Shown here: piece by piece, positions 6,295 through 62,599 of the stretch
Layout of the letters: each line of letters starts with the position of its first letter
Position numbering within the stretch: position 1 is the first letter of the stretch
Assembly (NCBI GenBank): GCA_046710535.1
Contig: JBKEHH010000014.1
Span: 13,927-77,926, forward strand
Reading direction: 5' to 3'
Source: Pseudomonadales bacterium
GTDB taxonomy: Bacteria > Pseudomonadota > Gammaproteobacteria > Pseudomonadales > CAWVSB01
Length of the DNA: 64,000 bases
The notes under the pieces: generated by a model
Database searches by the model: none
Told to the model about the DNA's origin: nothing
The model's input: only the letters and a program-made list of their open reading frames with translations
Made by a program: the position numbers and the translations under genes

Positions 6295-6501
6295 ATGGAG
6301 GACTATCAAATGTTTAAGTTATTCATCTTGATTATGTTGTTCTTTTTATCAGTTTTGATTGTGCGTGAGTTGAGAAAATATTTCACTCGCGATCAAAAAG
6401 AAGAGAAGTTACGTGATACCCTTATTAAAGGTGATTTAGTCGACATCGAGTTGGAAATTACTGGAGAAAAGCGCGTCAGCAAGATGTTCGTGCTGCAATG
6501 A
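6295..6501 (+). CDS. small single-TM hypothetical protein
   Basis: 68-aa ORF with one hydrophobic helix (FKLFILIMLFFLSVLIV). No family recognised. Confidence 0.3.
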   Translation: MEDYQMFKLFILIMLFFLSVLIVRELRKYFTRDQKEEKLRDTLIKGDLVDIELEITGEKRVSKMFVLQ

Positions 6502-6543
6502 ACGATCTGAAATCAGTAAATAACAATATCAAGGATAAAAGTA

Positions 6544-6899
6544 ATGACTAAAATTCCCGCTAAACTAATCGTATTATGAGTCTTGTTCGCAGCAACCTTG
6601 GTTGTACTTTTTATGGCGTTCGGTATCAATAATGCCGGTCACCGAACCGTGGTGAAGGTGACGGTGCCTATAAGCGTTTCGTAATCGAAGCGGATGGTGC
6701 GCTGGCGCAGAAACTAGAAACCTATGAGGCTGTGATGGGGCGCTTTGCAGCGGCTATCGAGAAACTAAAGAAGGTGCCTGAAGTGCAAATGGGCGGGGGC
6801 GCTGGTGCTGATGGCGGCTCAAACGCCATGACTCTGATTGAAATGATGAGCGTAAAAGCGGCTAAAGATTTGGCTTTGGACATGAGCGTCAATAAGTAG
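6544..6899 (+). pseudogene. SPFH/band-7 (prohibitin-like) gene remnant with a large internal deletion
   Basis: The N-terminus reads MTKIPAKLIVL*VLFAATLVVLFMAFGINNAGHRTVV (TGA at 6577-6579). It joins out of frame to a typical C-terminal tail GEGDGAYKRFVIEADGALAQKLETYEAV...GGGAGADGGSNAMTLIEMMSVKAAKDLALDMSVNK*. The central SPFH domain is missing. Confidence 0.5.
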
Positions 6900-6974
6900 A
6901 ACTAAGTGGTTTAGCAATAAGGGGTCAGAATGAATGATCCCATCAACTACCAATAGTAGTTTGAGGAATCGACA

Positions 6975-46426: not shown

Positions 46427-46693
46427 TCATTGCTCCGCCAGTATTAGGTTAAATTTCGTATAAAAATCTTCTAATGAGCGTTTGTCTGGTGAATCTACTT
46501 TAAATTTATTATGGAAGTACAAATATAACGTTGAGTCTCTATTTGAAATCATCAATGTGTAGCCGTCGAAAGAGCTTTCCGCCTGCAGCCCTTGGTAGAA
46601 TTTACCACCGTCTTGAGCTTCACCATGAGTATATATGGTATTAAACACTGCCATGATATCTCGCGGCGCTAACTTTCTCTCATCAGTTTTCAT
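46427..46693 (-). CDS. hypothetical protein (intact copy of a duplicated small gene)
   Basis: 88-aa ORF. A decayed paralogue at 48227-48436 supports real coding. Confidence 0.45.
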   Translation of the reverse strand: MKTDERKLAPRDIMAVFNTIYTHGEAQDGGKFYQGLQAESSFDGYTLMISNRDSTLYLYFHNKFKVDSPDKRSLEDFYTKFNLILAEQ

Positions 46694-48124: not shown

Positions 48125-48226
48125 AGTAGATTCCTTTTTACTTATAATTTGGTTGGTTGTTTAAAGTACCGCACAGATACTAATGCAGAGTAGGGGTTCA
48201 ACCTAGAAATCACGTAATCTTCAATA

Positions 48227-48436
48227 TTAAATTAAATTCAGTATAAAAGCATTATTATGAACGAGTGTGAGTTCTCCAAATTTGAATTTATTATGCAAGT
48301 CTATATATGCAGCTGAGTCTCTATTTCAAATTATCAAGGCATAGTCATCTACAGAACTAGCGTCAGCATGAGTATAAATAGCACTCAACACCGGCATGAT
48401 ATCTCCTGGTGTAAGCTTTCTCTGGTCATTATACAT
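48227..48436 (-). pseudogene. decayed paralogue of ORF 46427..46693
   Basis: MYNDQRKLTPGDIMPVLSAIYTHADASSVDDYALII*NRDSAAYIDLHNKFKF... compares with MKTDERKLAPRDIMAVFNTIYTHGEAQDGGKFYQGLQAESSFDGYTLMISNRDSTLYLYFHNKFKV. There is an internal deletion and an in-frame TGA. Similarity extends into the 5-prime leader. Confidence 0.65.
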
Positions 48437-48802
48437 AATGCGTAATACGTATTTTTATTTTAGGCTGACTGAAGCGACTAAACGGACGTATTATTACGCC
48501 AAATAGATTAAAACAAAGGGGAATTAAAACTACTAGTTTGCCAAGAACTGAACTCTAGTTTTTATCATTGGATTTTAGAAATCGTGTTAAAGCAGAGCTG
48601 CAAATTACTTACTCAATACAGTTTTTACCACCAGAATATTCTTGATAAATCAGTGATGTCTTTTTTGGGCTACGCCAAATTTTTACTCAAAGCAGTAATA
48701 TCACATATTGTCTTTTACTAAAAGTACATAAGTACTAATAAATATTATCAATAGATAGGGATGCCGATCCAACCACACGCACCCTATCTTTTCTTGATAA
48801 AG

Positions 48803-49875: not shown

Positions 49876-50047
49876 ACCAGCTTTGCCAGCTAATTTCCTC
49901 ATTAGAGTTATATAGGGAATGTCTAAAGAAAGGCATAACAATTACGCCAGGGTCTTTATTTACATCGCAAGGTAATTACCTGAATTTTTACAGCTTAGCT
50001 ACGCACATCCATGGAATGCTCAGCGAACAGATGGACGACCAAGCTAA
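49876..50047 (+). pseudogene. 3-prime remnant of a MocR/GntR-aminotransferase-like (PLP fold-type I) gene
   Basis: ...LELYRECLKKGITITPGSLFTSQGNYLNF, then after a 1-nt shift, LQLSYAHPWNAQ... This is the typical C-terminal PG..F....LRLSYA.PW pattern. There is no upstream part. Confidence 0.4.
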
Positions 50048-50163
50048 GTATCTATACTAAAATCAATATTTAAGTTGGAAATTAGTAGATTTATTCTTGA
50101 TATCCAGTCATCTAATTATGAAATAGATTAATATCCAACTTATTTATACTCTTCCAAGATAAA

Positions 50164-50237
50164 TGTGATTTTAGTTGACCACTATAATAGTTAACGCAGG
50201 AATTTGGAGTTCACCCTGTAATAAAGTTTAAATGGCG
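50164..50237. repeat. candidate Tn7-like left-end repeats: TGTG terminus-like start followed by four abutting A/T-rich-AGTT units
   Basis: TGTGATTTTAGTTGACCAC / TATAATAGTTAACGCAGG / AATTTGGAGTTCACCC / TGTAATAAAGTTTAAATGGCG, with AGTT at 50173, 50189, 50208 and 50225. The units recall Tn7 TnsB-site cores (AATAAAGTCTTAAAC, AAAATAGTTGG; from memory). They end 24 bp from the tniQ stop. Confidence 0.4.
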
Positions 50238-50260
50238 TTACTAAGAGATTAACCAAAACC

Positions 50261-51820
50261 CTAGAATTTTGCGTAATGTCGAAATTCATAGGGGGAATTA
50301 AACGGGAATGACTTTAGTCTATGCTCAAGATAATCATTGAATTCTTCTGTGAGTGCTTTGTATTGATGCCAAGGAAATTGAATAGTATCTATGAATTCAT
50401 AAAAAAATAATGATTCAAGAGGGTAGTGTTTTTTATGGTACCTAGTGAATTTCTCGCATATTTTATGATCATTACGCCTAGTCTGTATCTGATAACCATC
50501 TAACGGATAAACCACGTCCTTTAAGAATACTCTTAATTTACCCTCTTTAATCTCACAACTGTAATATTGATAATTATGAGGCCTTTCTTTATAAGGTGCA
50601 TAAAGCGTATCTGTTGTGAGGATTGATTCTTTGTTTACTTTTTCCCCAATATTATTCACTAATCTTTCTACTCGCTCGAATATATCGATAAAGCAGATTT
50701 CTAAGCTTCGTTGATAGAACCATTCAATAAAACGCTCTTCATAATTTAGATATCCTTCAATTATTAAAGGATGAAAGAATTGGAAAGGGTGATAAAAATT
50801 CCTATTATTTTCACTGTTTATCAAAAAAGGATAGTCTCTTATGGTTATAAAATTATGGATTTTTAGTGAATAGTTGAAACTTTCTACGTAGAAAAAATAC
50901 ACACTCAAAGCGGTACAAAATTTACATGATTTGGGTGCTTTTAAAAGATCTTTTAGACGTATAGATTTTAATGTGAATACTTTTGATCGATGCCCCTTAG
51001 GACATTGTTTTGCAATCCATCGTAAAATTCTGGTTAATGTTAGATATTTGACTCTCGCCATTTTAGCGATGAGTTTAGGTGAATAATTATTGATGAAAAA
51101 ATCTTCTCCTTCATATATCGGATTGATTTTTTCATATTTATTAAAAATGATAACCCGTACAGGTGAGATGGGAATTTTTAGAGATTGTAAGAGTTTATGA
51201 GTTACTTTTTTGTCTTTGATAGTGAGAATCGTTGGGTAATACCTGTCTTTTGGCGATATTTCATACCAGCCATCACCAAAAGATGGAATTGATCTCTGCT
51301 GAGAGAGATTTTCTTCTAAATAGTAGTAGTTTTTAGTCAACCAGTCTCTAAAAAGGTTGTCTAGTTTTTTTATAATTTTAAAATCGACATCTGTAAGAAC
51401 TAATTCAGGCTCTGAAGTAATATTTTGGGCACTATAGTCAATTGTCCCATCTTTTTTCGTGTTATCATCAAGACAAACTACAGAGGGAATTTCAGCGGTT
51501 AATTTACAGTGATGTATAGGGCAATGGGTTATCCAAGGTATATTAAAGATATCTGTATGGAAAATTATCTGTGCACATTTAGGACAAAATTTAAATTCTC
51601 CTATTAGTTGCGTAGCAATTTGATTGGAACTTTCAAACCCTTGATATGCGAGCACTCTCTGTTTGAACCCTGTAATCTCAGGAAATATGGTTTTCAAATA
51701 TTTATCAATAAATATTTGTGATAGTCCCCGATTTGCTACCATAAATCTCGTTATGCAGGAGAGCTCGCTTTCGTGAGGTCTCTTAAAATAGTCACCTGAG
51801 TTAAAATGTAGTCCCATCAC
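50261..51820 (-). CDS. tniQ: TniQ/TnsD-family target-selection protein
   Basis: TniQ-like N-terminus (PHESELSCITRFMVANRG) with a Cys/His cluster (FCPKC...WITHCPIHHC). 519 aa, comparable with Tn7 TnsD. 4-nt overlap with tnsC. Confidence 0.8.
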   Translation of the reverse strand: MMGLHFNSGDYFKRPHESELSCITRFMVANRGLSQIFIDKYLKTIFPEITGFKQRVLAYQGFESSNQIATQLIGEFKFCPKCAQIIFHTDIFNIPWITHCPIHHCKLTAEIPSVVCLDDNTKKDGTIDYSAQNITSEPELVLTDVDFKIIKKLDNLFRDWLTKNYYYLEENLSQQRSIPSFGDGWYEISPKDRYYPTILTIKDKKVTHKLLQSLKIPISPVRVIIFNKYEKINPIYEGEDFFINNYSPKLIAKMARVKYLTLTRILRWIAKQCPKGHRSKVFTLKSIRLKDLLKAPKSCKFCTALSVYFFYVESFNYSLKIHNFITIRDYPFLINSENNRNFYHPFQFFHPLIIEGYLNYEERFIEWFYQRSLEICFIDIFERVERLVNNIGEKVNKESILTTDTLYAPYKERPHNYQYYSCEIKEGKLRVFLKDVVYPLDGYQIQTRRNDHKICEKFTRYHKKHYPLESLFFYEFIDTIQFPWHQYKALTEEFNDYLEHRLKSFPFNSPYEFRHYAKF

Positions 51821-52764
51821 ACAGCCTTTATATTTTCTGGCACGAAGCCAGTGGCATCTAATGCACGCTCTACCATTTCTTCAGAGAGATGATCAACTCC
51901 GTAATGAGGCAAAAAATCAGTTAATAAAACATTCACCATTGATATAAAGTACTGCATACCCCAAGAATCAATCTGATATGCTTTTTGATAACGGGTGAAA
52001 GTACCCCATAATAAAGATGCCGCATCACTTAAGCGCCAATTATCATTAAACGCCTGTGGTAAAAAGAACTCTGTATAAACTGGACCGTCTTCTTTGGGAA
52101 AACGCAGTGAGTCGTATTGAGCAAGACACGCTTTGACATCAGCTTTATTTCGAAGGCCATAGAAGTTATAGATATTTATGAAAAATCGACCATGGATATG
52201 ACGATATTGTTTCTTTCTGATGACATGTAATAAAGACTCCGCCTCATCGCTATTCACCACAAGGAATACATGTAATTGGATTTTGTATTTCTCACGTAAA
52301 ATGTCATAGATTTGGCAAAAGACTCCACATTGCTCTGGTGATAATCGCTGTGCTTCATCGGCAAAGATAATAAACTGACGGCTCTTTTTCTCAGCCAAAC
52401 TATCGAGAATATAGCAGAGGAGATTATTCAGCATAGGTTCTACTCGCATGGTATTGGTAACAGGTAAATCCACGCTAACCAATAATGTTCTATAAAGAGC
52501 ATTTACTGTTTTTCGGTCAAGGGTAGGAACGGTCAGAAAGTGAGAAGGGATGATTTCGCCACGACGATTTTTCAGATTATCTCTAATGTAATCGAGCGCT
52601 GTAGTTTTTCCATGGCGCGCCTGCCCTTGTATCACTGCACCAGTGATGCCGTTCCAGAGCAGCTGTGTTAACTGGTCTTCAAGTAACTGAATAGCAGGTG
52701 TTCGTATGATGAGATCATAAGGATGGAACACGGGGTGATCGTAGTAATCAATGTTTTGTTGCAT
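51817..52764 (-). CDS. tnsC: TnsC/TniB-family AAA+ ATPase
   Basis: Walker A GQARHGKTT and Walker B FIIFADEAQRL. 315 aa, which is TniB-sized. Confidence 0.85.
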   Translation of the reverse strand: MQQNIDYYDHPVFHPYDLIIRTPAIQLLEDQLTQLLWNGITGAVIQGQARHGKTTALDYIRDNLKNRRGEIIPSHFLTVPTLDRKTVNALYRTLLVSVDLPVTNTMRVEPMLNNLLCYILDSLAEKKSRQFIIFADEAQRLSPEQCGVFCQIYDILREKYKIQLHVFLVVNSDEAESLLHVIRKKQYRHIHGRFFINIYNFYGLRNKADVKACLAQYDSLRFPKEDGPVYTEFFLPQAFNDNWRLSDAASLLWGTFTRYQKAYQIDSWGMQYFISMVNVLLTDFLPHYGVDHLSEEMVERALDATGFVPENIKAV

Positions 52765-54646
52765 GATTCGATACCATGAGTTTAGTGGATAGGGAAGTAC
52801 TCCAAGGTTTGATCTTCAGTGTAGTTTGGTCAACAGCTATCGCATCATATGAATGATCTTGAGATGGCTTTAATATAAGAGGTTCATCACCAGAATCCGT
52901 AAATTCATCATATATTTTAAGAATTTTCAGATTATCTTCAGAGTTACCTTTATGTTCCAATAAGTACCTAAAATAGCCTGCCAGTAAATCGGTAGCATGA
53001 AATGCATGAGCTTTCACTAGATTGTGAATATGTTTACGGGTTGCCAGGCTGTGTTTAAATCTACGCCACGATCTTGAAGCTAGTAATGTCCCTAATGCGG
53101 CACCGCCTGTCGTAAAAACACTTAATTCCCGAATGTCGCGTATATCGTATTCGACAGTTACGTAACTATCGTCTCTTAGAGCTGTATATAATTCTTGATG
53201 ACTTGAGGTATAGCGGACATAGAAGAAATTTACGTGGGGCTGTCTATTTTCTTTTTTTAGCCACTTAATCGGTAAATTTACTCGCCGCGTAAATGGTGAC
53301 CAGCGCTCTCTAAGGATCTCTGGAGTGTATCTCACATAATGATTCTGATGATGGTCAAGAAACAACGATAGAGGTGTTGTTGCGCCAAGGTGTGATTTCG
53401 GAGTCACATTATCTTGAGTCAATATAATACTGAGCGCCTCTTCTAATGTTCGCAGGGTAATCAACGGCACTTTTTTATTGTTTTTTCGTGATTCTTTTTT
53501 TGGGTCTTTAGGGTGTGATCCTGTAGTCGAGTTAGCACGATGACTAAAATTTATGTTGATATAGTTAAAGGCAGCTTCAATCCAGTTCCGTGTTTGGGGA
53601 ACAGCTGGGGGGCCAAAACTTAGAGTGGCTGACCGTTGTATACATATGACATCACGCACGCTATGGGAAAAATGGGATAAAGCATTATCCAGCTGTAAGG
53701 TATTAAAATTGATGTCTGTAATTGCTGGGTGACCTGATGGAAACATTGCTCCTGGTTCATATTGAAACCCCGGTGTTGTTAACTGTAATGGTTGCCAAGG
53801 TTTTATACATTTATCGAACAACATGAGAATGTCTTGTTGGTTAGGAGTTTTTGTATAGGCTATTGCAAAACCTAATTTGCAATTAGTATCGACGTCCATT
53901 GCCAATAAGAGGTTGATCCGTTTGATGCGAAGCGGAATCAACTCCTCATTGAGTTGAAGGTGGATACTAGTATGTAAATCCATGGTTTGTTCGTCAATTT
54001 GAATAGTTCTTAAAGCCCGCTGTGCTGGAAGATCGGAAATATACTTATGTGCTTTTTGATCGTGTATCCTCTTTAACTCATTACTGCGCTTGTGGAGATA
54101 TTGTCGTACTGATTCATAAGCCACACTTTGCGTGTTGTAGGGATAACAGTCGGTTGGATGATTAGCCTCTCTAAGCACATTCTTAAACTCACCATGAAAT
54201 ACCTTGGGCGTGAGATTTTGACTATAGGGCTTATCACTTTGGTATGCCTTAATCATGCTATCCAGACGACTTTCCATATATGGAACATGATTCAATAGCC
54301 ACTGAAAGCTATAATTCTGCCCACTAGTCATATCCATTGGTTGACGGCGTTCGCCTTTATTTAAGCGTTTATCAGGAATCAGCCCCTGAGTTAAAGGCGG
54401 AGGCTCATTCTCATCGCCACTCAAGCACCGATTGAGAATGTGGCTAACAAAAGAAGTGGAAACCTGATGAACTGTTGCTGTGTGCTTGATTGAGACGCCT
54501 TTTAGAACCGATAGAGCGATCTGCTGATTACGAATAAACCGTTTGCGTTTGGATTTATGTAAATTCGACACATCCACATAAGGCCATTCAGCAAGCTGCC
54601 GTAACCGAGGCTCTCTATCTAGGCGAACTGACCAATTGATCTGCAT
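52748..54646 (-). CDS. tnsB: TnsB-type DDE (Mu/retroviral-integrase-like) transposase
   Basis: N-terminal HTH region. DDE candidates are IQIDEQT, LQLDNALSH and WIEAAFNY. A C-terminal Mu-transposase-like beta domain is present. 632 aa. Confidence 0.9.
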   Translation of the reverse strand: MQINWSVRLDREPRLRQLAEWPYVDVSNLHKSKRKRFIRNQQIALSVLKGVSIKHTATVHQVSTSFVSHILNRCLSGDENEPPPLTQGLIPDKRLNKGERRQPMDMTSGQNYSFQWLLNHVPYMESRLDSMIKAYQSDKPYSQNLTPKVFHGEFKNVLREANHPTDCYPYNTQSVAYESVRQYLHKRSNELKRIHDQKAHKYISDLPAQRALRTIQIDEQTMDLHTSIHLQLNEELIPLRIKRINLLLAMDVDTNCKLGFAIAYTKTPNQQDILMLFDKCIKPWQPLQLTTPGFQYEPGAMFPSGHPAITDINFNTLQLDNALSHFSHSVRDVICIQRSATLSFGPPAVPQTRNWIEAAFNYININFSHRANSTTGSHPKDPKKESRKNNKKVPLITLRTLEEALSIILTQDNVTPKSHLGATTPLSLFLDHHQNHYVRYTPEILRERWSPFTRRVNLPIKWLKKENRQPHVNFFYVRYTSSHQELYTALRDDSYVTVEYDIRDIRELSVFTTGGAALGTLLASRSWRRFKHSLATRKHIHNLVKAHAFHATDLLAGYFRYLLEHKGNSEDNLKILKIYDEFTDSGDEPLILKPSQDHSYDAIAVDQTTLKIKPWSTSLSTKLMVSNHATKH

Positions 54647-55326
54647 GATTGAAACCGTGTAGGAAAGTCTAAGGGTGCTTCATTAAGATTGGCGCGAAAT
54701 TGCCCGTGATACAAGAGACGAAAAAGACCAATCTCGCGCTGATAGGTGCGCTCCCGATCCCCTCTATCAACAATATCACCCAGATAAAAGCAGTCTGTCA
54801 CGGTGCCAAATTCACCCAACAAATCAATCTCTGCTTGGTGAGTATCAATATCTACTGCTTGATGCAGCGTATGGACAATCATCAGCCAGTTCTCAGCGGC
54901 TAATTGCTGCTCAAACACAGTCTCATTAGCAAGTGTGCCGAAGCTCATTTGACGTAAAGCAAAGAATTGCTTGAGGGCCTCCACTTGGTTTTCATCAAAT
55001 TTACCCTCAGGTTTGAGTTCTAACACCTGCTGATCACCGTTTGCTTCAACGTAGATATCAGGTGTGTAGAAACCTCCAAAGACTTTTAACCGATACGGTT
55101 GCGGCACATAACGACGTACGGTGGGGTCACCTTCTAGCAAGGCAACATGGAGCAATTCGGCCAGTGAGTGAAATTCAGAAATTCCGGGGTGTTTCAGTAG
55201 GCAGCATTGAAAAAAATTTGTAGATTTCTTGAAATTCGGCCTAGTAGGCTGTTGTACCGGTTCAAGTGTATCGGCCCAGACATGCCTTGCCATGTCATAT
55301 CGAGAATGGAGTAACTGCTGGCTCAT
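54619..55326 (-). CDS. tnsA: TnsA endonuclease
   Basis: Restriction-endonuclease-like triad context: SLAELLHVALLEGDPTVRRYVPQP, YTPDIYVE, QVLELKPEG. Confidence 0.85.
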   Translation of the reverse strand: MSQQLLHSRYDMARHVWADTLEPVQQPTRPNFKKSTNFFQCCLLKHPGISEFHSLAELLHVALLEGDPTVRRYVPQPYRLKVFGGFYTPDIYVEANGDQQVLELKPEGKFDENQVEALKQFFALRQMSFGTLANETVFEQQLAAENWLMIVHTLHQAVDIDTHQAEIDLLGEFGTVTDCFYLGDIVDRGDRERTYQREIGLFRLLYHGQFRANLNEAPLDFPTRFQSCRSIGQFA

Positions 55327-55394: not shown

Positions 55395-55445
55395 TGCACC
55401 AATTATATATAGTTTGGTGCAGGTATAAAAACGCCTATTTTTATA
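55395..55445. promoter_or_regulatory. two adjacent perfect palindromes in the tnsA / recombinase divergent region
   Basis: TGCACCAA-N11-TTGGTGCA at 55395-55421 and TATAAAAA-CGCCTA-TTTTTATA at 55424-55445. A third TGCACCA lies at 55508-55514, just before the recombinase ATG. Confidence 0.5.
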
Positions 55446-55528
55446 GACAAATACGCTTAAAAGGCGGTTATGTCACCCACTTAAGCGGTTTATAATACCT
55501 CTCAATATGCACCAGAGTACAAGGGCAA

Positions 55529-56263
55529 ATGGTACAAACACATTACACAGACCATGAATTTTCGCCAACGCGCAGGCGCAACCTCTTTGCACCTATCGAA
55601 CGTCCTGCCGTCACGTTCCCGATACAGTCTGTCGTTATCGATTGGGATCGCCTGCAAGCCAAACGTGCCATCGTGCTAGAAACCGCCGACACCATGCCAG
55701 CTTACCTGCTGAAGCCCGAAATCAATCTCCTACTTGATGCGGAAAAAGATCCAATTTATCGCCTCATCTATGACTTAATGTGGACAACAGGAGCACGGGT
55801 ATCTGAAGTCCTCGCGTTAACCCCTGAACGCTTTACCAATGACGGCTACGATTACGGTGTTATTTTAAAAACACTCAAACAAGGGTCAGGACGACCAACT
55901 AAAAAGTCCTTACTTCGATCGAAAAAGCGCTATGTGCCCATCGTTGATCGGGGCGTACAAGATAGAATTCAAAGCTATTTATACACAGGACATTTTAGAA
56001 AGACTGAACACATATTTACCATGAAACGACAAACCGTTTGGCGACATATTCAGCGATTAGTGGAGAGAGTAGGGGGCGCACCATTTTCGATATCTACAAA
56101 GACCTTTAGGCATTCTTTCGCTGTTCATCTCATATTACATGGCAGGCCTTTAAAGATTGTCAGCAAACTCCTAGGACACGCATCGATACAAACGACAGAA
56201 ATTTACACCAACGTCCTAACGGTAGACGCTGGGCATTTTTTAGAAGGGGTGGATTTTCATTAG
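55529..56263 (+). CDS. short tyrosine recombinase (catalytic domain only; FimB/XerC-like)
   Basis: TGARVSEVLAL (Arg I), FRHSFAVHL (Arg II; the first His of HxxR is replaced by Lys: KTFRH), LLGHASIQTTEIYTNV (His/Tyr nucleophile). 244 aa with no recognisable N-terminal core-binding domain. Confidence 0.85.
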   Translation: MVQTHYTDHEFSPTRRRNLFAPIERPAVTFPIQSVVIDWDRLQAKRAIVLETADTMPAYLLKPEINLLLDAEKDPIYRLIYDLMWTTGARVSEVLALTPERFTNDGYDYGVILKTLKQGSGRPTKKSLLRSKKRYVPIVDRGVQDRIQSYLYTGHFRKTEHIFTMKRQTVWRHIQRLVERVGGAPFSISTKTFRHSFAVHLILHGRPLKIVSKLLGHASIQTTEIYTNVLTVDAGHFLEGVDFH

Positions 56264-56807
56264 AGAAAGGATATTAATAGCTCGGTGTATGTTGAAGACT
56301 GCCCGCTTAAAGGATTCATGATTACGTTTAATGCAGTTGCCTAGTAACTATGTTAAGTGTCTAGTAAAGTCTGGGAAGTTCAGGGAGTCCGAGTTCAAGA
56401 GATAGGTAGCCCTTTTTTACATTTCTTTTCTTCTTCCACGCGCCAGAGACTTTTTTCAAATTCTCGGTTTTTCTTTGGTATGGGGTCATTGGTGTTGCCT
56501 GTGGCAAATACCATTGTGCTCTTCTCGAAGCTGGCGGACTCATTTGTCCATGATAAATTTTCTAACTCCCAATGCTTTCTCTGTTTTGCGAATAGAAACA
56601 TCTTAGATTCACAACTAGACGTGCTGCCTGTAATCTAAATTCTGGGTTTTATGTCGGTCTCACTCGTCTGTTCATTGATCCGTAAGTAGTTATGAGATGA
56701 TAATGTCACCTTTTAATCAGGTGGTCAGCTTCACTATTACACTATCTACTACTTAACAGCCTATAAATGGATTATTCAGTTCGCATTTAGTGCTGTCAAA
56801 AGGCGAG

Positions 56808-57275
56808 TCATTTAGTTTGAATGGTTATTGTGGCGCTAACATTCCCAGGTTGCTTTCCTTTATTTAATGTTAATGACGTTATCTTGGTGCTTTTTGAGGA
56901 AGTATTTAATGCCCCGATAAGCGCTATGGTTTTACTATAAAGCGCATCATTGGTAGAGATAAGTACGCCTCCATCTGTTTTCGGTTGTATTCGATCCAAT
57001 GTAATTTCGTATTCGGCGGCAATTTTCGCGAGATCACTAATGGTAACTTCGTCAGTTCCAGTTCGAGTTCCATGATTGCTTTCTATCAGAGTATTTTTAT
57101 TTATCTGCATCCATGATAACAGCGACTTTTTTTCCGTATATCCATTTATAGCTTTTAGCTTCAGGGTATTGATAGAAGGCAAAATGACAAGCGAAAGAAT
57201 GATAGCTACCAAGGCAATAGCGTGACGCGGGTGTGATTTAGCATTGGTTTTAATTTGTTCTACGAGTTCATTCAT
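56808..57275 (-). CDS. gspM: T2SS GspM-like protein
   Basis: 155 aa with a single N-terminal TM (HAIALVAIILSLVILP) and a periplasmic ferredoxin-like-sized domain. It sits directly after the gspL-like gene. Confidence 0.55.
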   Translation of the reverse strand: MNELVEQIKTNAKSHPRHAIALVAIILSLVILPSINTLKLKAINGYTEKKSLLSWMQINKNTLIESNHGTRTGTDEVTISDLAKIAAEYEITLDRIQPKTDGGVLISTNDALYSKTIALIGALNTSSKSTKITSLTLNKGKQPGNVSATITIQTK

Positions 57276-57290
57276 ATTTTACTTGTGAGT

Positions 57291-58505
57291 CTATAAAGTG
57301 ACTTGTATTTTTGCACTGATAGTAGATTTTTGCTGATCTGCATTTAGTAATTTGGCTTTTGCACCATTTTCTTCAATCAATTTCACATATCGTTGTATTG
57401 CATCATGACTGGTGGCCTTAATATCTATAGTAAGACCGTTACTAGGCTGAAATCTCAACGATTGTATGTCAACTACATCCGCTGGTTTTAAAGCGCTTAC
57501 CAGCAACTGCTGAAGATTATTATTTGTTGCTGAACTAGTGTTATTGATATGTTGTTTAAGTTGTCTTTTAAGACTAATTATTCGTTTGTCTTGAGGATAT
57601 ATTTCCTTGTATAAGGCGACAGCTTGATCTTGGTATTCTTTTTCTTGTGACGAGTAGTAAAGCCACGACACGGTATTAATAACAACAACCATCAGAAGTA
57701 CAGCCGCTGCACTAATAGCAAATAACGGTTTTTTAATGAGATCGTATAACTCGTGTTTGATGTCTTTACGCTTATTGGGTAAAACGTCCCAGTATTCCAG
57801 TTCCGCTGAATGGTCTACTAACCATTGTTCGATCGGTACTGCTATTGAGGAATAGTCATAGCGGGCGTGTACCATATTACTGTCTATAGTCGGCTCACCG
57901 AAATGATGGTGAACTATGGAGTGGTCATCAGTACGTTCTCTTATAATACTTTCTAAAAATACAGTTAAATTTTTATAATCACAGGCGTAGGTGTTTGTTT
58001 GATCAAGGTTAATCAATACCATTGATTCGTCGCTGACAATTGTAATTGTCCTATTTGTTGATGAAATTAAGTGAGTATCTAAGATGGTTTTGCTGATGGG
58101 CACATGTTGTTTAGCTAAGAATGCGAGCCATTGGCTGGATAGCTGTTTATGTATGGCAACAGCTTTCCATTGATTTTCATCAAATGGGTGGCAGGTGATA
58201 GTGAATGCGTCAATATCTTCAAGAGCGTATTCTTCAAGATGATATTTGATGGTGTTGGAAATATGCTGGGATTTGTTATCTGTGTTAGGTAAATCGATGC
58301 AATCACAAATGGTGTGCATCGCTGGCCATACCAAAATACACTCATCCTCATCCTCATCCTCATCGTCGTTGATGACGGATATTAGCTGCGCGCCCGCTAT
58401 GAGTATTGCATCAACGCCTATTTCTTTCTGGTAGGCCTTAATACCTCCCCAAGTAGGGGTGCTGTTTATTGCCTGTTGATCAATAAATAGAAAATACCTA
58501 GTCAT
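57291..58505 (-). CDS. gspL: T2SS GspL-like protein
   Basis: 404 aa: about 250-aa cytoplasmic domain, one TM (LFAISAAAVLLMVVVINTVSWLYY) and a periplasmic domain. 8-nt overlap with gspE. Confidence 0.6.
   Translation of the reverse strand: MTRYFLFIDQQAINSTPTWGGIKAYQKEIGVDAILIAGAQLISVINDDEDEDEDECILVWPAMHTICDCIDLPNTDNKSQHISNTIKYHLEEYALEDIDAFTITCHPFDENQWKAVAIHKQLSSQWLAFLAKQHVPISKTILDTHLISSTNRTITIVSDESMVLINLDQTNTYACDYKNLTVFLESIIRERTDDHSIVHHHFGEPTIDSNMVHARYDYSSIAVPIEQWLVDHSAELEYWDVLPNKRKDIKHELYDLIKKPLFAISAAAVLLMVVVINTVSWLYYSSQEKEYQDQAVALYKEIYPQDKRIISLKRQLKQHINNTSSATNNNLQQLLVSALKPADVVDIQSLRFQPSNGLTIDIKATSHDAIQRYVKLIEENGAKAKLLNADQQKSTISAKIQVTL
58341..58364. repeat. hexanucleotide repeat (CTCATC)4 inside gspL-like gene, encoding DEDEDEDE
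   Basis: Read directly. Confidence 0.95.
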
Positions 58506-60000
58506 TGGGTTGCTCGACAGCGAGGCGAAGTACTTCTTCGATATTGGTTTCTAGATTTGATACTTTTTCTAGCCCTGAAGTTACCAGCGATCGATGGTCG
58601 TTGGGCAGTTGCTGCGCAATGACTTGCTCGCTTTCAGCTTTCGTAATGAGGTGTTTGAGTTTGTCGTCAATAATTACGAGTTCATATACAGCACTGCGGC
58701 CATAAAACCCTGTGTTGTTACACTCTGCGCATCCCTCTGGATGGGCTAGTTCTTGTGGTGGTTTAAGTTTATAGGTATTGAAGATATCGATTTCGTGCAC
58801 TGTGATTGGACGAATAATTTTGCAGTTATCACAAAGCTTTCGCACCAGTCTCTGAGCCATTACAGCGCTTAGACTGGAAGCTAGCAAATAGGATTCGACC
58901 CCCATATTGGTTAAGCGAGTAATCGCCCCAACAGCAGTATTTGTATGAAGCGTTGATAGGACGAGGTGGCCAGTGAGGCTAGCCTGTACGCCTATAGATG
59001 CCGTCTCGTTGTCTCGTATTTCCCCTATCAATATAACGTCTGGGTCTTGTCTAAGCATTGATCTTAAGCCGCTGGCAAATGTCATGCCAGATTTTTCATT
59101 GACTTGTGTTTGAGAGATGCCTTCTATATCGTATTCGATTGGGTCCTCAATAGTCAGGATATTACGTCGTAGCATGTCGATCGATTGGAGTGCTGCATAT
59201 AGTGTTGTGGTTTTGCCCGAACCTGTCGGGCCTGTCACTAGAATAATACCGTGCGGTTGAGCAATAAGCTTTTTGATGCTGCCCAGTAGTTGAGCATCCA
59301 TGCCTAAATTCGTTAGTTCGTAATTATTAGCGCCGTGAGCAAGTAAACGCATAACGATACGCTCACTTCTTTTTGTCGGCAGTGAAGATACTCGTACATC
59401 CATATCCGTGCCTAGTAATTGCATGGAGAAGCGGCCGTCTTGAGGTTTTCTCTTTTCAGCAATATCCATTTTCGACATCACTTTAATGCGCGATAATAAA
59501 AGATGGCCAATACTTCGATGCACCGATGCTGCTGACTGCAATACCCCGTCTACACGATAGCGAATCGTTAACTTGTCTTTACTGGTATCAATATGAATGT
59601 CTGACGCACGGCGTTTTAATGCTTCAACAAGCATAGCATTGACGAGTCTGATAACTGGAGCTGCATCCTCGCTATCTAGTAAATCAACTTTGTTGCCAAT
59701 ATCTAGCAGCGCATCACTTAACCCTTCGTTACCTGATAATGTATTTGCATCGGCAAATTCCTTACTTTTAGTATCTTCGTAAGTTTCGTAAGTTAGCTTT
59801 GCTATGTCTTCTTGACTCAGCAATTCTAGCTTTATTGACTTGTCTAAAAAACGCCTAACTTCCGCTAGTGCAGCTATTGGCGTTTTGTCTGAATATGACA
59901 CACACGGTTGTTGGTCTAACGTGTTGACGACGATATCAAAGCGTTTAGCCCACTGAATAGGGATACTATTCATCTTCTGGGGTTTCGCTGGGCTGTTCAT
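58498..60000 (-). CDS. gspE: T2SS ATPase GspE
   Basis: DLLDSEDAAPVIRLVNAMLVEALKRRASDIHI, Walker A GPTGSGKTT, Asp/His boxes and the tetracysteine motif CDNC...CAECNNTGFYGR. Confidence 0.95.
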   Translation of the reverse strand: MNSPAKPQKMNSIPIQWAKRFDIVVNTLDQQPCVSYSDKTPIAALAEVRRFLDKSIKLELLSQEDIAKLTYETYEDTKSKEFADANTLSGNEGLSDALLDIGNKVDLLDSEDAAPVIRLVNAMLVEALKRRASDIHIDTSKDKLTIRYRVDGVLQSAASVHRSIGHLLLSRIKVMSKMDIAEKRKPQDGRFSMQLLGTDMDVRVSSLPTKRSERIVMRLLAHGANNYELTNLGMDAQLLGSIKKLIAQPHGIILVTGPTGSGKTTTLYAALQSIDMLRRNILTIEDPIEYDIEGISQTQVNEKSGMTFASGLRSMLRQDPDVILIGEIRDNETASIGVQASLTGHLVLSTLHTNTAVGAITRLTNMGVESYLLASSLSAVMAQRLVRKLCDNCKIIRPITVHEIDIFNTYKLKPPQELAHPEGCAECNNTGFYGRSAVYELVIIDDKLKHLITKAESEQVIAQQLPNDHRSLVTSGLEKVSNLETNIEEVLRLAVEQPND

Positions 60001-61936
60001 TAACTTCTGAGGGCTGTTTGTTGGCAGCCCTATTTTGCTCTATAAATTCTTCTAACACTGAACCTGAACCAGGCAGTAAGAAATTATCAAGATCTTCATT
60101 CATGTCGTACTGATTTAGCTGCATTTGTTTGTAACGCTTTTTCGTCACTAAGTTGTTATCACTTTCTGTGTACAATATTTTTGGGTGTAAAAATACCATC
60201 AGGTTTTTCTTGACGATTTTATCGGAGGTGCTTTTAAATAGGCGCCCCAAATATGGAATATCACCGAGCAAGGGGATTTTACTTTCCGTCTGAGTGATCT
60301 CATCGCGAATTAATCCGCCTAATACTAAAATCGCATCATCATCAATTAACACATGAGTATTGATAGCACGCTTGTTGGTGACGATATCAGCTGTGGTAGC
60401 AGAGGTATCCGAGATGCTTTCTACAGTCTGATTGACTTCGAGATTAATTGAACCGTCATTATTAATACGCGGTTTAACTTTAAGCGTGACACCAATATCT
60501 TGGCGCTGAATAGTTTGAAATGGATTGTCGGTTGAAGATGATGCATTGGTAGATTGTCCGGTAATAAACGGTACGTTTTCTCCGACCAATATTTCAGCCT
60601 CTTCATTGTCTAGCACAACAATGGTTGGTGTAGATAACACGTTCGCAGCCGTATCGTTTTCGAGTGCGCGTATCATGGCGCGTAACTGGTCGTCTTTAAA
60701 CAACCCCAATGTTAGTCCTGACGCTATGGTAGGAGGGGATATGATATTGATATTCTTGGTGATAGTGTTTTGCCCTGCAAATACACCGTCGCTAGGAACA
60801 TCGGTTTGCCATTGTATTCCTAAATCTTTTAGTCGTTCTTCGTTAACCTCGACAATCAGAGCTTCCACAAGTACTTGCGCTCTGCGAATATCCAATTGAT
60901 CGATAATAGCGCGAAGCGACTTGATAATGTCGGGTGAGCCGGTGATAACCAGTGAGTTGGTTTGTTCATTGATTTCTATGGTAGTTTCGATGCGCTCACC
61001 AGGAGAGCTAACATTGCTTCGTAGCCCTGTGGCAACAGCTCGTAATGTCGGCATAAGTTTTGCGGCTTCAACATAATTGAGAAAAATAACTTGCGCATTT
61101 CCCTGGGTGTCTTGTGGGTTATCTAGCCTTCCTATGAGTATGCGCAACTGTCTTTTTTCAGACGAATTTCCAGCGATCAATATGCTATTAGTTCTTGGCT
61201 CCGCCACAATGGTGATTTTGCTATTCGCCGATGATTTTTGCTTAGCAGTTATTTTATTCAGTATGTCGACAATCTTGCCGGCATCTGCATAGTTAATAGC
61301 AATAATCTCTGCGTCAACATCACTGGTAATGTCGAGCTTGCTAATGATCGTAAGCAAATGTTCAATTTGTTGGTAGCGGCCAGAAATTATCAACGAATTC
61401 GTGCTGGGTTCAGCAATCAGCGAGCTGCCTTTGGCCGCGAGAGGTTTTACCAGATTGATGGTCTCGCTGGCATCAATATGCTTTAGACGAACTATTTTGG
61501 TGATGTTGTTTTCACTGGCTTGTGAAGATGACTTCTCATCAATCAGGGGGCTAGTGGGTTCAGTACCATTTGGAATTATTTTGATGACATCATCAAGCTC
61601 AATGGCTGAATAGCCGTGAACTTCTAATGTTGATAAGAAAACGTCATAAGCTTCTTTCTTGCTCATCGGATCACCCGCCAAAATAGTGACCTGACCGCTA
61701 ACCGACGGATGAATGACGATATTTTTGGTTACCAGAGTTGATGCCCAACGAATAAGTTCGCGAATATCGCCTTGCTCCATAGAAATCGAGATATTTCTTT
61801 CTTGGGATTGTTCAGCTGTAATGGCGTCAGTGGGTATGACTACTAGCACTGTGGTCAAAAAAATCATGACAAAGCTGTTGAGCCTATGGTTAACCCTTGA
61901 CGCAAACGCTTTTTTAATTGATGGGGTAAACAGCAT
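59966..61936 (-). CDS. gspD: T2SS secretin GspD
   Basis: N0-N3 domains (DIRELIRWASTLVTKNIVIHPSVSGQVTI...) and a secretin core (VPFITGQS...IPLLGDIPYLGRLFKS...NLMVFLHPKIL). Confidence 0.95.
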   Translation of the reverse strand: MLFTPSIKKAFASRVNHRLNSFVMIFLTTVLVVIPTDAITAEQSQERNISISMEQGDIRELIRWASTLVTKNIVIHPSVSGQVTILAGDPMSKKEAYDVFLSTLEVHGYSAIELDDVIKIIPNGTEPTSPLIDEKSSSQASENNITKIVRLKHIDASETINLVKPLAAKGSSLIAEPSTNSLIISGRYQQIEHLLTIISKLDITSDVDAEIIAINYADAGKIVDILNKITAKQKSSANSKITIVAEPRTNSILIAGNSSEKRQLRILIGRLDNPQDTQGNAQVIFLNYVEAAKLMPTLRAVATGLRSNVSSPGERIETTIEINEQTNSLVITGSPDIIKSLRAIIDQLDIRRAQVLVEALIVEVNEERLKDLGIQWQTDVPSDGVFAGQNTITKNINIISPPTIASGLTLGLFKDDQLRAMIRALENDTAANVLSTPTIVVLDNEEAEILVGENVPFITGQSTNASSSTDNPFQTIQRQDIGVTLKVKPRINNDGSINLEVNQTVESISDTSATTADIVTNKRAINTHVLIDDDAILVLGGLIRDEITQTESKIPLLGDIPYLGRLFKSTSDKIVKKNLMVFLHPKILYTESDNNLVTKKRYKQMQLNQYDMNEDLDNFLLPGSGSVLEEFIEQNRAANKQPSEVNEQPSETPEDE

Positions 61937-61951
61937 AAAATGAAAAATCCT

Positions 61952-62599
61952 TTATTGATCTCTTTTGGCGCGAAGTTTTCCCAGTCGATCACTAAGTTGG
62001 GAATAATTCTCTGAACTTCGCCTTACCAGCGGCTGCTGTTGCAGAGATGTATTTCGACCTAGGTTTTCGGCAGGCGTTGATACGGTTGGTTGATTGGTTG
62101 GCGTGGTGTAATGTGCATTATTATTTTTGTTAGACGCTAGCGCTTTTGCAGTAGGAAGCAACAGTGTTTCAAAGGCATCATCGCGTTTGATAGTGACTCG
62201 GTCGCTAAAGACCTCATGTAATGTCACGCCATCGGCGATGGTATCTTGTGTTAAAAACAGTTTTGCAGTGTTACGGGCGATAGCTATCAGCGCAGAGGAG
62301 TTTTCAGAGTTCTTTTTTACAAAGGTCGCAACTAAGCGTAGATCAAGATTTGTGGTCGGCAGGGCTTTAGGTGCCTTTATTGTTTTAACTGATTCGGCTT
62401 TTCCAAAAGGATGCAGGTCTGCAATCGAACTCAGTTTTAAGGCAGTACTATTTTGAGCGCTTGTTGTAAGTTCTGTTAATGCCAAATCGTATGCTACCGG
62501 GGTAGATAGCGCAGGCGCCAAATTGGCTATTAGAGTATAGCCAATCATGACGGTGGCGAGGATTATCGCACTTGCTGTTGTGGTCGTCGAAGATGACAT
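61952..62599 (-). CDS. gspC: T2SS GspC-like protein without PDZ domain
   Basis: N-terminal TM, an HR-like region (LHPFGKA...LDLRLVATFV...SSALIAI...LHEVFSDRVTIKRDDAFETLLLP) and a polar/basic C-terminal tail instead of PDZ. Confidence 0.55.
   Translation of the reverse strand: MSSSTTTTASAIILATVMIGYTLIANLAPALSTPVAYDLALTELTTSAQNSTALKLSSIADLHPFGKAESVKTIKAPKALPTTNLDLRLVATFVKKNSENSSALIAIARNTAKLFLTQDTIADGVTLHEVFSDRVTIKRDDAFETLLLPTAKALASNKNNNAHYTTPTNQPTVSTPAENLGRNTSLQQQPLVRRSSENYSQLSDRLGKLRAKRDQ

Follow-up and report, generated by a model that had tools for sequence, protein, structure and literature searches.

The 64,000-nucleotide stretch of contig JBKEHH010000014.1 from a Pseudomonadales bacterium (referred to as a whole as the window) carries four genes that resemble the tnsA-tnsB-tnsC-tniQ core of Tn7-like transposons, and the locus raises two questions: what kind of element is this, and can it still move? 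A sequence-only reading had earlier placed the module at 50261-55326 and regarded it as intact, and as recent or active. The genes do occupy those positions, but the unit is larger, as the gene for a small tyrosine recombinase (YR1) and a palindromic site (S1) adjoin it at 55395-56263. The locus is interpreted here as the Tn7-like core of a divergent family whose copy in the window is most likely one-ended and immobilised, with tnsABC not yet decayed (a probability of roughly 0.7). The earlier view of an intact, active element is not borne out, as only one end can be detected (at 50032), the 545-bp gap beyond YR1 contains no end-like repeats, and the target selector TniQ has lost a zinc ribbon. 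Reaching from 50032 to the YR1 stop at 56263 or beyond, the copy holds neither cargo nor the second recombinase gene (YR2) that is found in some relatives.

Identity of the core proteins

Standard profiles barely detect the proteins of the window, and alignments of the family were for this reason built from homologues. The sequence-only reading had looked to the AAA_22, TnsA_N, TniQ and rve profiles for recognition of the four proteins; AAA_22 does match TnsC, TnsA_N and TniQ stay below their gathering thresholds, and rve misses TnsB. TnsB has no match in Pfam or NCBIfam, and is found by the PHROG 310 transposase family at E = 3e-11. Its homologues fall into 73 clusters, the best non-self match being only 51% identical, and nine genome loci of the family were found. 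The residues D218, D320 and E357 are invariant among 28 homologues. With the family profile, the closest solved protein by sequence is PseTnsAB (6.7e-5), followed by ShCAST TnsB (5e-4). The AlphaFold model (predicted local distance difference test, pLDDT, of 81) matches the folds of ShCAST TnsB (2e-14), Tn7 TnsB (2e-12) and MuA (2e-12), and the modelled fold confirms TnsB as a DDE transposase of the Mu/Tn7 type.

For TnsA the profile matches are sub-threshold (Pfam TnsA_N, E = 0.0016; NCBIfam TnsA_like, 4.6e-4). Its PD-(D/E)xK motif comprises D90 and E103, which are invariant, and K105, which is present in eight of nine aligned sequences. The four best PDB matches of its AlphaFold model (pLDDT 93) are all Tn7 TnsA, including 9bw1_M, 1t0f and 1f1z (E = 4e-7 to 7e-6), so that the predicted structure confirms a Tn7-type TnsA endonuclease. 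TnsC is matched by the generic Pfam AAA_22 (7e-9) and has intact Walker A and B motifs, with G47, G52, K53, D136 and E137 invariant across the family. The TnsC family profile finds ORC1/Cdc6 at 2e-4, and its specific link to known TnsC proteins is weak (VchTnsC, 0.017; ShTnsC, 0.031). The TnsC motifs quoted earlier, GQARHGKTT and DEAQ, are present, and the catalytic and nucleotide-binding residues are conserved in the family alignments. A TnsC of 315 aa together with TnsA had been considered notable; the size is in fact ordinary, as VchTnsC has 330 aa and ShTnsC has 276 aa.

The fourth gene is weakly labelled as tniQ, from its CCCH zinc finger, its position and weak profile matches. Pfam TniQ matches it at E = 0.0027 over 33 aa only (residues 75-107) and scores in just three of ten family members, and the family profile gives a marginal match to Tn7 TnsD in the zinc-finger region (E = 0.46). 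The CCCH finger (C79, C82, C100 and H103) shows no variation within the family. A second zinc ribbon (CxxC...CxxC) is kept in 25 of 25 relatives and is absent from the TniQ of the window (26 members compared), where a deletion of ~14 aa takes out all four of its cysteines. The GC content is 0.31-0.34 across 50001-52000, which covers tniQ and extends into tnsC, versus ~0.43 elsewhere, and this is the most AT-rich part of the window; the low-GC stretch coincides with the gene that lost conserved residues.

The core is a genuine, deeply divergent Tn7-like module, of which the TniQ assignment is the weakest part, and the family is a divergent variant within the known Tn7-like kind. The gene layout described by the sequence-only reading is correct: the four ORFs (open reading frames) lie on the same strand with successive overlaps of 28, 17 and 4 nt, the first of these being between tnsA and tnsB, which tnsA immediately precedes. 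Equally, the present results agree with its account of a Tn7-like core that has a single TniQ-type gene and neither tnsE nor CRISPR-Cas. From the left (tniQ-side) end to YR1 there is no ORF besides tnsABC-tniQ, hence no tnsE-like and no cas-like gene, and there is none between tniQ and the left end. CRISPR arrays, Rfam matches, tRNAs and tandem arrays were looked for throughout the 64-kb window, and none was found. By homology with Tn7, TnsB would bind the end repeats and cut and join the 3′ ends, TnsA would cut the 5′ strands and so give cut-and-paste movement, and TnsC would couple the transposase to a target marked by TniQ.

Table 1. Features of the Tn7-like element and its surroundings (positions are those of the window)
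Feature	Position	Strand	Remarks
tnsA-like PD-(D/E)xK endonuclease gene	54619-55326	-	235 aa
tnsB-like DDE transposase gene	52748-54646	-	632 aa
tnsC-like AAA+ ATPase gene	51817-52764	-	315 aa
tniQ/tnsD-like target-selector gene (label weakly supported)	50261-51820	-	519 aa, GTG start; CCCH zinc finger kept, second zinc ribbon lost
YR1, small Xer-like tyrosine recombinase gene	55529-56263	+	244 aa, catalytic domain only; divergent from tnsA
S1, palindrome TGCACCA-N13-TGGTGCA	55395-55421		between tnsA and YR1
S1b, imperfect palindrome TGCACCA-N15-TGGTACA	55508-55536		overlaps YR1 start codon
Left (tniQ-side) transposon end	50032-50186		terminal motif 5′-TGGACGACCAAGCTAAGT at 50032-50049
Gap from YR1 stop to host gspM stop codon	56264-56807		545 bp; nothing recognisable

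Family architecture and transposon ends

Loci of the family or of YR1 from genomes, assemblies and metagenomes are designated by L-numbers (L002, L006 and so on). The hosts of the family are mostly marine gammaproteobacteria, with further members in metagenomes. In relatives the order runs from the right end, sometimes by way of YR2, through defence cargo to YR1, S1 and tnsA-tnsB-tnsC-tniQ, sometimes with more cargo, and then to the left end. In L002, L003, L006 and L010 YR2, a second small recombinase with a palindrome of its own (S2), borders the cargo on the side away from YR1. The cargo encountered after YR1 is diverse: a CBASS-type nucleotidyltransferase with E1/E2-like genes, an OLD-family ATPase with a UvrD helicase, STAND-type NTPases, a DUF4365-TPR protein, a type I restriction-modification system, and SNIPE nucleases.

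The right end of relatives consists of three to four tandem repeats that are putative TnsB sites. In L002 and L006 it starts with the terminal motif 5′-TG(TG)GACG(A/T)CCAA(C/G)T(A/T)AAG, followed by two to three more repeats, and it is similar in L045, L046 and L063; in these five loci the ends bearing the shared motif lie beyond the cargo. The same terminal motif is found at the tniQ-side end of L002, L004, L005, L015 and L026. L002 and L006 have two inverted multi-repeat ends, a feature that L045, L046 and L063 show in part. The end analysis of L002 is complicated by inverted large recombinase genes on both sides. A large tyrosine recombinase (417-443 aa) is encoded just outside the tniQ-side end in L002 and also in L004 (L004:5638-6891), and in L002 an inverted second copy (85% identical) just outside the other end leaves the element bracketed by recombinase genes (the two copies being at L002:121-1407 and L002:14472-15803).

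The copy in the window and its right end

At the left end of the copy in the window the terminus is followed by ~4 further repeats of the CCAA(G/C)NTAA type, in both orientations. The terminal 18-mer TGGACGACCAAGCTAAGT is unique in the window, where 0.03 matches are expected by chance, and it resembles the TTGG(N)CG(N)CCA termini of L002, L004, L005, L006, L026, L045, L046 and L063. Nowhere in the 64 kb except here, at 50039-50164, do site-like repeats form a cluster. The left end also contains a 27-nt inverted repeat (78%; 50066-50092 / 50121-50147), unlike the one-directional arrays of L002 and L006.

No counterpart of this end was found on the right: there is neither an inverted terminal motif nor a second site cluster anywhere in the 64 kb. 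The 545-bp gap occupies the place where relatives have their defence cargo, their right end and in some cases YR2, and it shows no homology to any related locus and no end-like or tandem repeats. Searches of the window by tblastn, tblastx and blastn found no remnant of YR2 or of cargo after YR1, and S2-like half-sites occur in the window at chance frequency only. A second assembly (L105, from sequencing run SRR28961167) is 100% identical to the window over 12 kb and has the same junction between YR1 and gspM. The sole look-alike of the terminal motif is at 55889-55906, inside the YR1 coding sequence and oriented as the left end. This sequence, GGACGACCAACTAAAAAG, encodes GRPTKK and begins with 15 nt, GGACGACCAACTAAA, that recur unchanged in the right-end sequence of L063; the look-alike may be a coincidence that arises from coding constraint.

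The main rival interpretation is that the element is complete and currently mobile, with an unrecognised right end either in the 545-bp gap or in the ~70 bp between S1 and tnsA, and with a TniQ that is a functional variant directed to a new target. It draws on the uninterrupted state of the four ORFs and YR1, on the retention by TnsABC of all family-invariant catalytic residues, and on the difficulty of detecting end motifs in several relatives. Against it stand the restriction of the terminal motif and repeat cluster to 50032-50186, the lack of tandem repeats in the gap, and the loss from TniQ of the ribbon present in all 25 relatives. A weak 30-nt inverted match (73%) between 50061-50090 and 56744-56773, the latter ~35 bp past the gspM stop, would also favour a complete element, but 56744-56773 pairs with the interior of the left end and not with its terminus, and it does not contain TTGG(N)CG(N)CCA. 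This pair was rejected as the two ends, since its right arm is without the true terminus found at 50032. A complete and mobile element is accordingly regarded as unlikely.

Several points nevertheless weigh against a one-ended, immobilised copy as interpreted here. Four uninterrupted ORFs suggest that mobility was lost very recently or that the genes still function. Relaxed constraint is not apparent in tnsA, tnsB and tnsC: at columns that are invariant elsewhere, private changes are absent from TnsB (0/25) and mild in TnsC (3/35) and TnsA (3/33). End motifs diverge among members, and in many relatives (L010, L102, L104 and L109) no ends were found by motif, so that the 545-bp gap may hide a right end that has diverged strongly. 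Inspection for matching 5-mers revealed no 5-bp target duplication in L002 and L006, for which both ends are proposed. No empty site was found, as the gspM protein finds itself only and a metagenome scan with gspL finds nothing, which is attributed to the lack of sampled relatives of the host. In addition, the sequence evidence for the TniQ assignment is weak, and the function given to YR1 and S1 below is deduced from their arrangement alone. With these points taken into account, the copy in the window is probably immobile.

The genes that adjoin the element belong to a type II secretion system and are intact. They were considered as cargo and rejected, as L105 shows a complete host system in two divergent operons, gspF, G, H, I, J and gspC, D, E, L, M (L105:2-3745; window 56808-62599). 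The split into two divergent operons explains why gspE is directly followed by gspL in the window. On the other side, two copies of a DUF3081 gene (46427-46693 and 48222-48437), ~75% identical and 1.8 kb apart, flank an alpha/beta-hydrolase gene; the second copy has no listed ORF of at least 60 aa.

The YR1 recombinase and its putative site

YR1 is matched by Pfam Phage_integrase (7e-20) and by NCBIfam XerD (3e-26, model positions 97-275 only), and its family profile finds an XerC-like structure (2e-18) and an XerD structure (2e-16) in the PDB. The residues R90, K117, R194, H217 and Y226 are invariant. The change H191K was not counted as a sign of inactivation, since L042 likewise has K at this position. 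Across loci, YR1 is 62-82% identical, versus 30-51% for the Tns proteins. YR1 adjoins tnsA in seven of ten loci (the window and nine genome loci), and is placed likewise in many loci of assemblies. A metagenome scan with YR1 yielded 80 loci, in ~27 of which tnsABC-tniQ adjoins it, and among those with >3 kb of upstream sequence at least 20 are without any tns genes. An apparent mosaic in L100 (TnsA 98%, YR1 56%) was dismissed as an artefact of different query sequences, as the L100 locus and the window have no DNA similarity.

Some members of the family are without YR1. In L103 a serine resolvase gene (6375-6944) takes its place. In L018 (8002-9000 and 12861-15947) the genes upstream of tnsA are a toxin-antitoxin pair and a 340-aa integrase, and tnsC is followed by two consecutive genes of ~500 aa, the first of which alone was aligned with the TniQ family.

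In 41 loci, whether tns genes are present or not, S1 recurs ~125 bp upstream of YR1, and the S1 core and S1b show the same arrangement in these 41 loci, a statement that concerns arrangement alone. A promoter-like site facing tnsA (55429-55402, minus strand) overlaps S1, and YR1 may regulate the two divergent promoters, its own included. Homology between L023 and L032 is confined to ~860 bp that extend exactly from S1 through the YR1 stop, and the Tns-less loci L023 and L033 have the YR1 and YR2 blocks in common and differ in the cargo between them. Judged by where homology starts and stops, YR1 and S1 are a separable module of ~860 bp that is also found outside Tn7-like elements. The place of tnsABC-tniQ is taken in L048 by a helicase and a Tn3-family transposase (DDE_Tnp_Tn3, 1037 aa), ~2.3-5.4 kb upstream of YR1, and homologues of both ORFs occur at the same positions in L041, L050 and L052 (the Pfam scan covered L048 only).

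Near-identical elements can differ in what follows YR1. In the pairs L022/L037 (95-99%) and L109/L111 (98%), unrelated cargo begins within a few bases of the YR1 stop and homology resumes further on. This pattern points to repeated exchange of cargo at a fixed slot, and would be explained by an exchange role of YR1 and S1. A model for such a role is provided by Tn4430 of the Tn3 family, in which the site of the TnpI recombinase (IRS) has an inverted-repeat core and gene-proximal accessory motifs (PMC2847244). YR1 resembles TnpI in being a small tyrosine recombinase beside its own site with a core and gene-proximal motifs, a likeness of arrangement only, and in adjoining Tn3-family transposases in four loci. 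It differs in that its partner here is a cut-and-paste Tn7-like core, and resolution by YR1 is putative. By this analogy, YR1 may act at S1 as a resolution and exchange module of the TnpI/IRS type.

The independence of the module also allows for two separate elements: a transposon of ~5.3 kb, from tnsA to the left end, that homes to recombinase-bound sites like S1 in the manner of the res hunters of the Tn5053 type, with YR1 and the cargo as its target and a right end between S1 and tnsA. The Tns-less YR1 loci and the higher conservation of YR1 fit this arrangement, as do the constant orientation of tnsA, which always faces S1, and the strong DNA homology in Kangiella (L008/L009), which begins just upstream of tnsA. 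However, end repeats with the left-end motif lie beyond the cargo and not near tnsA in L002, L006, L045, L046 and L063, the distance from S1 to tnsA varies from ~70 bp to >3 kb, and the window has no end-like motif between S1 and tnsA. Furthermore, two Marinobacter contigs with unrelated left flanks share the cargo, YR1 and tnsABC-tniQ as a unit at 99.98% identity, which indicates that YR1 and the cargo travel inside the transposon. Two separate elements are thus highly improbable, and a single element that includes YR1 and, in relatives, its cargo is preferred.

Adjacency to dif and target selection

The E. coli dif site has the sequence GGTGCGCATAATGTATATTATGTTAAAT. In three independent loci, L006 (Alcanivorax sp. 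S6407), L046 and L063, a canonical 28-bp dif site with two to three mismatches to that of E. coli lies 35-36 bp outside the right terminus (L006:3205-3232, L046:13617-13644 and L063:18566-18593), the orientation of dif being reversed in L063. The association is not universal: no dif accompanies the right ends of L002 and L045, and the loci L102-L104 and L106-L113 added neither dif sites nor end motifs within 10 kb. Dif-like sites are also present 63-84 bp upstream of YR2 in Tns-less loci (L023:11394-11421, L033:15280-15307 and L066:8455-8482; also L079 and L044), which suggests dif-adjacent defence islands that may be built from the same recombinase modules. The window contains no dif-like site at up to six mismatches, and its GC skew shows no switch.

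These observations can be combined into a reading in which the family is a dif-homing Tn7-like lineage, with YR1 and YR2 swapping anti-phage cassettes and with the copy in the window off-target or rearranged. Here, TniQ would direct insertion to a point 35-36 bp from dif, with dif recognised either by its sequence or in its XerCD-bound form, which would constitute a tyrosine-recombinase counterpart of the res hunting of Tn5053. YR1 and YR2 would exchange cassettes at a fixed slot, also with Tn3-family elements and dif-adjacent islands, and the copy in the window would have lost its right end and would now be losing its selector. As a whole this reading is tentative and rather doubtful. The target-selector survey of Faure et al. 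does not mention dif, and a full-text literature search for Tn7-like elements with dif, XerC and TniQ returned only the dif-like system of Tn6022.

Comparison with known systems

Among known systems the window's element would work like Tn7 and the TnsA-bearing elements of the I-F3 type, an expectation that follows from analogy. Like Tn7 it has a heteromeric TnsA and TnsB (by fold matches), an AAA+ TnsC and a putative zinc-finger selector of the TnsD/TniQ type, and its relatives share with Tn7 several end repeats and a terminus related to the TGTGGGCGG of Tn7. In three of them the right end is also set at 35-36 bp from a conserved chromosomal sequence, which recalls the site-specific insertion of Tn7. 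Tn7 itself (tnsABCDE, attTn7 at glmS) has a TnsC of about 555 aa. The window's element, in contrast, has no tnsE and a TnsC of 315 aa, the divergence in sequence leaves its TnsB without a Pfam rve score, and a Xer-like recombinase with its site adjoins tnsA. In relatives the cargo is mainly on the tnsA side, and the putative attachment site in three of them is dif and not glmS.

Tn6677, a type I-F3 CRISPR-associated transposon (CAST), encodes TnsA. With the elements of this type the window's element shares the combination of TnsA with a TnsC of ~300-330 aa (330 aa for VchTnsC) and a putative TniQ, and the closest solved sequence to its TnsB is the PseTnsAB fusion protein. It differs from them in that it has no cas genes or CRISPR array, a TniQ of TnsD length (519 aa), and a YR1 module. 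Elements of the Tn5053/Tn402 type (tniA-tniB-tniQ-tniR) have no tnsA and carry the serine resolvase TniR with a res site. They resemble the window's element in a small, TniB-sized ATPase, in a putative TniQ, and in a site-specific recombinase with a nearby site, and their targeting beside recombinase-bound sites (res hunting) is analogous to the dif adjacency of relatives; here, however, TnsA is present, the recombinase is of the tyrosine and not the serine type, and the gene order differs.

Tyrosine-recombinase-derived proteins and dif-like sites have precedents among Tn7-like elements in the TnsF protein and the XerC-like/dif-like system of Tn6022 (PMC10293859, PMC11014353). TnsF (~480 aa) has zinc fingers and an inactivated catalytic domain, is encoded downstream of tniQ, and targets comM (PMC10293859). 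YR1, in contrast, has 244 aa, keeps R-K-R-H-Y, and lies upstream of tnsA, with no involvement of comM. The element is therefore not a CAST, not of the Tn5053 type and not a Tn6022/TnsF element, as it fails a defining feature of each.

In the survey of Benler et al. (2021, PMC8649781), tyrosine resolvases ('tnsR', clades 2 and 3) typically go together with the loss of tnsA and with a predicted replicative mode of transposition. The 'tnsR' elements share with the present family a Tn7-like core, a recombinase of the tyrosine superfamily and defence cargo. The difference is that tnsA is kept here, with an active site that appears intact from its sequence. The survey was seeded for TnsB with Pfam rve and CAST-derived alignments (PMC8649781), and it may have missed the family since rve does not score this TnsB.

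Implications

A whole family of Tn7-like elements escapes the usual profile-based detection. Its combination of an apparently active TnsA with a Xer-like module is unexpected, given that the published survey tied such resolvases to the loss of tnsA. The cargo swaps and the Tn3-family neighbours of YR1 point to a module for exchanging cargo that different transposon families have in common. If the dif association is true, dif would be an attachment site that was not found in two broad Tn7 surveys or in the literature search. The copy in the window is probably stranded, and it offers no evidence of an active transposon; rather than in this copy, the interest lies mainly in the family, with its recombinase-linked cargo slot and its adjacency to dif.

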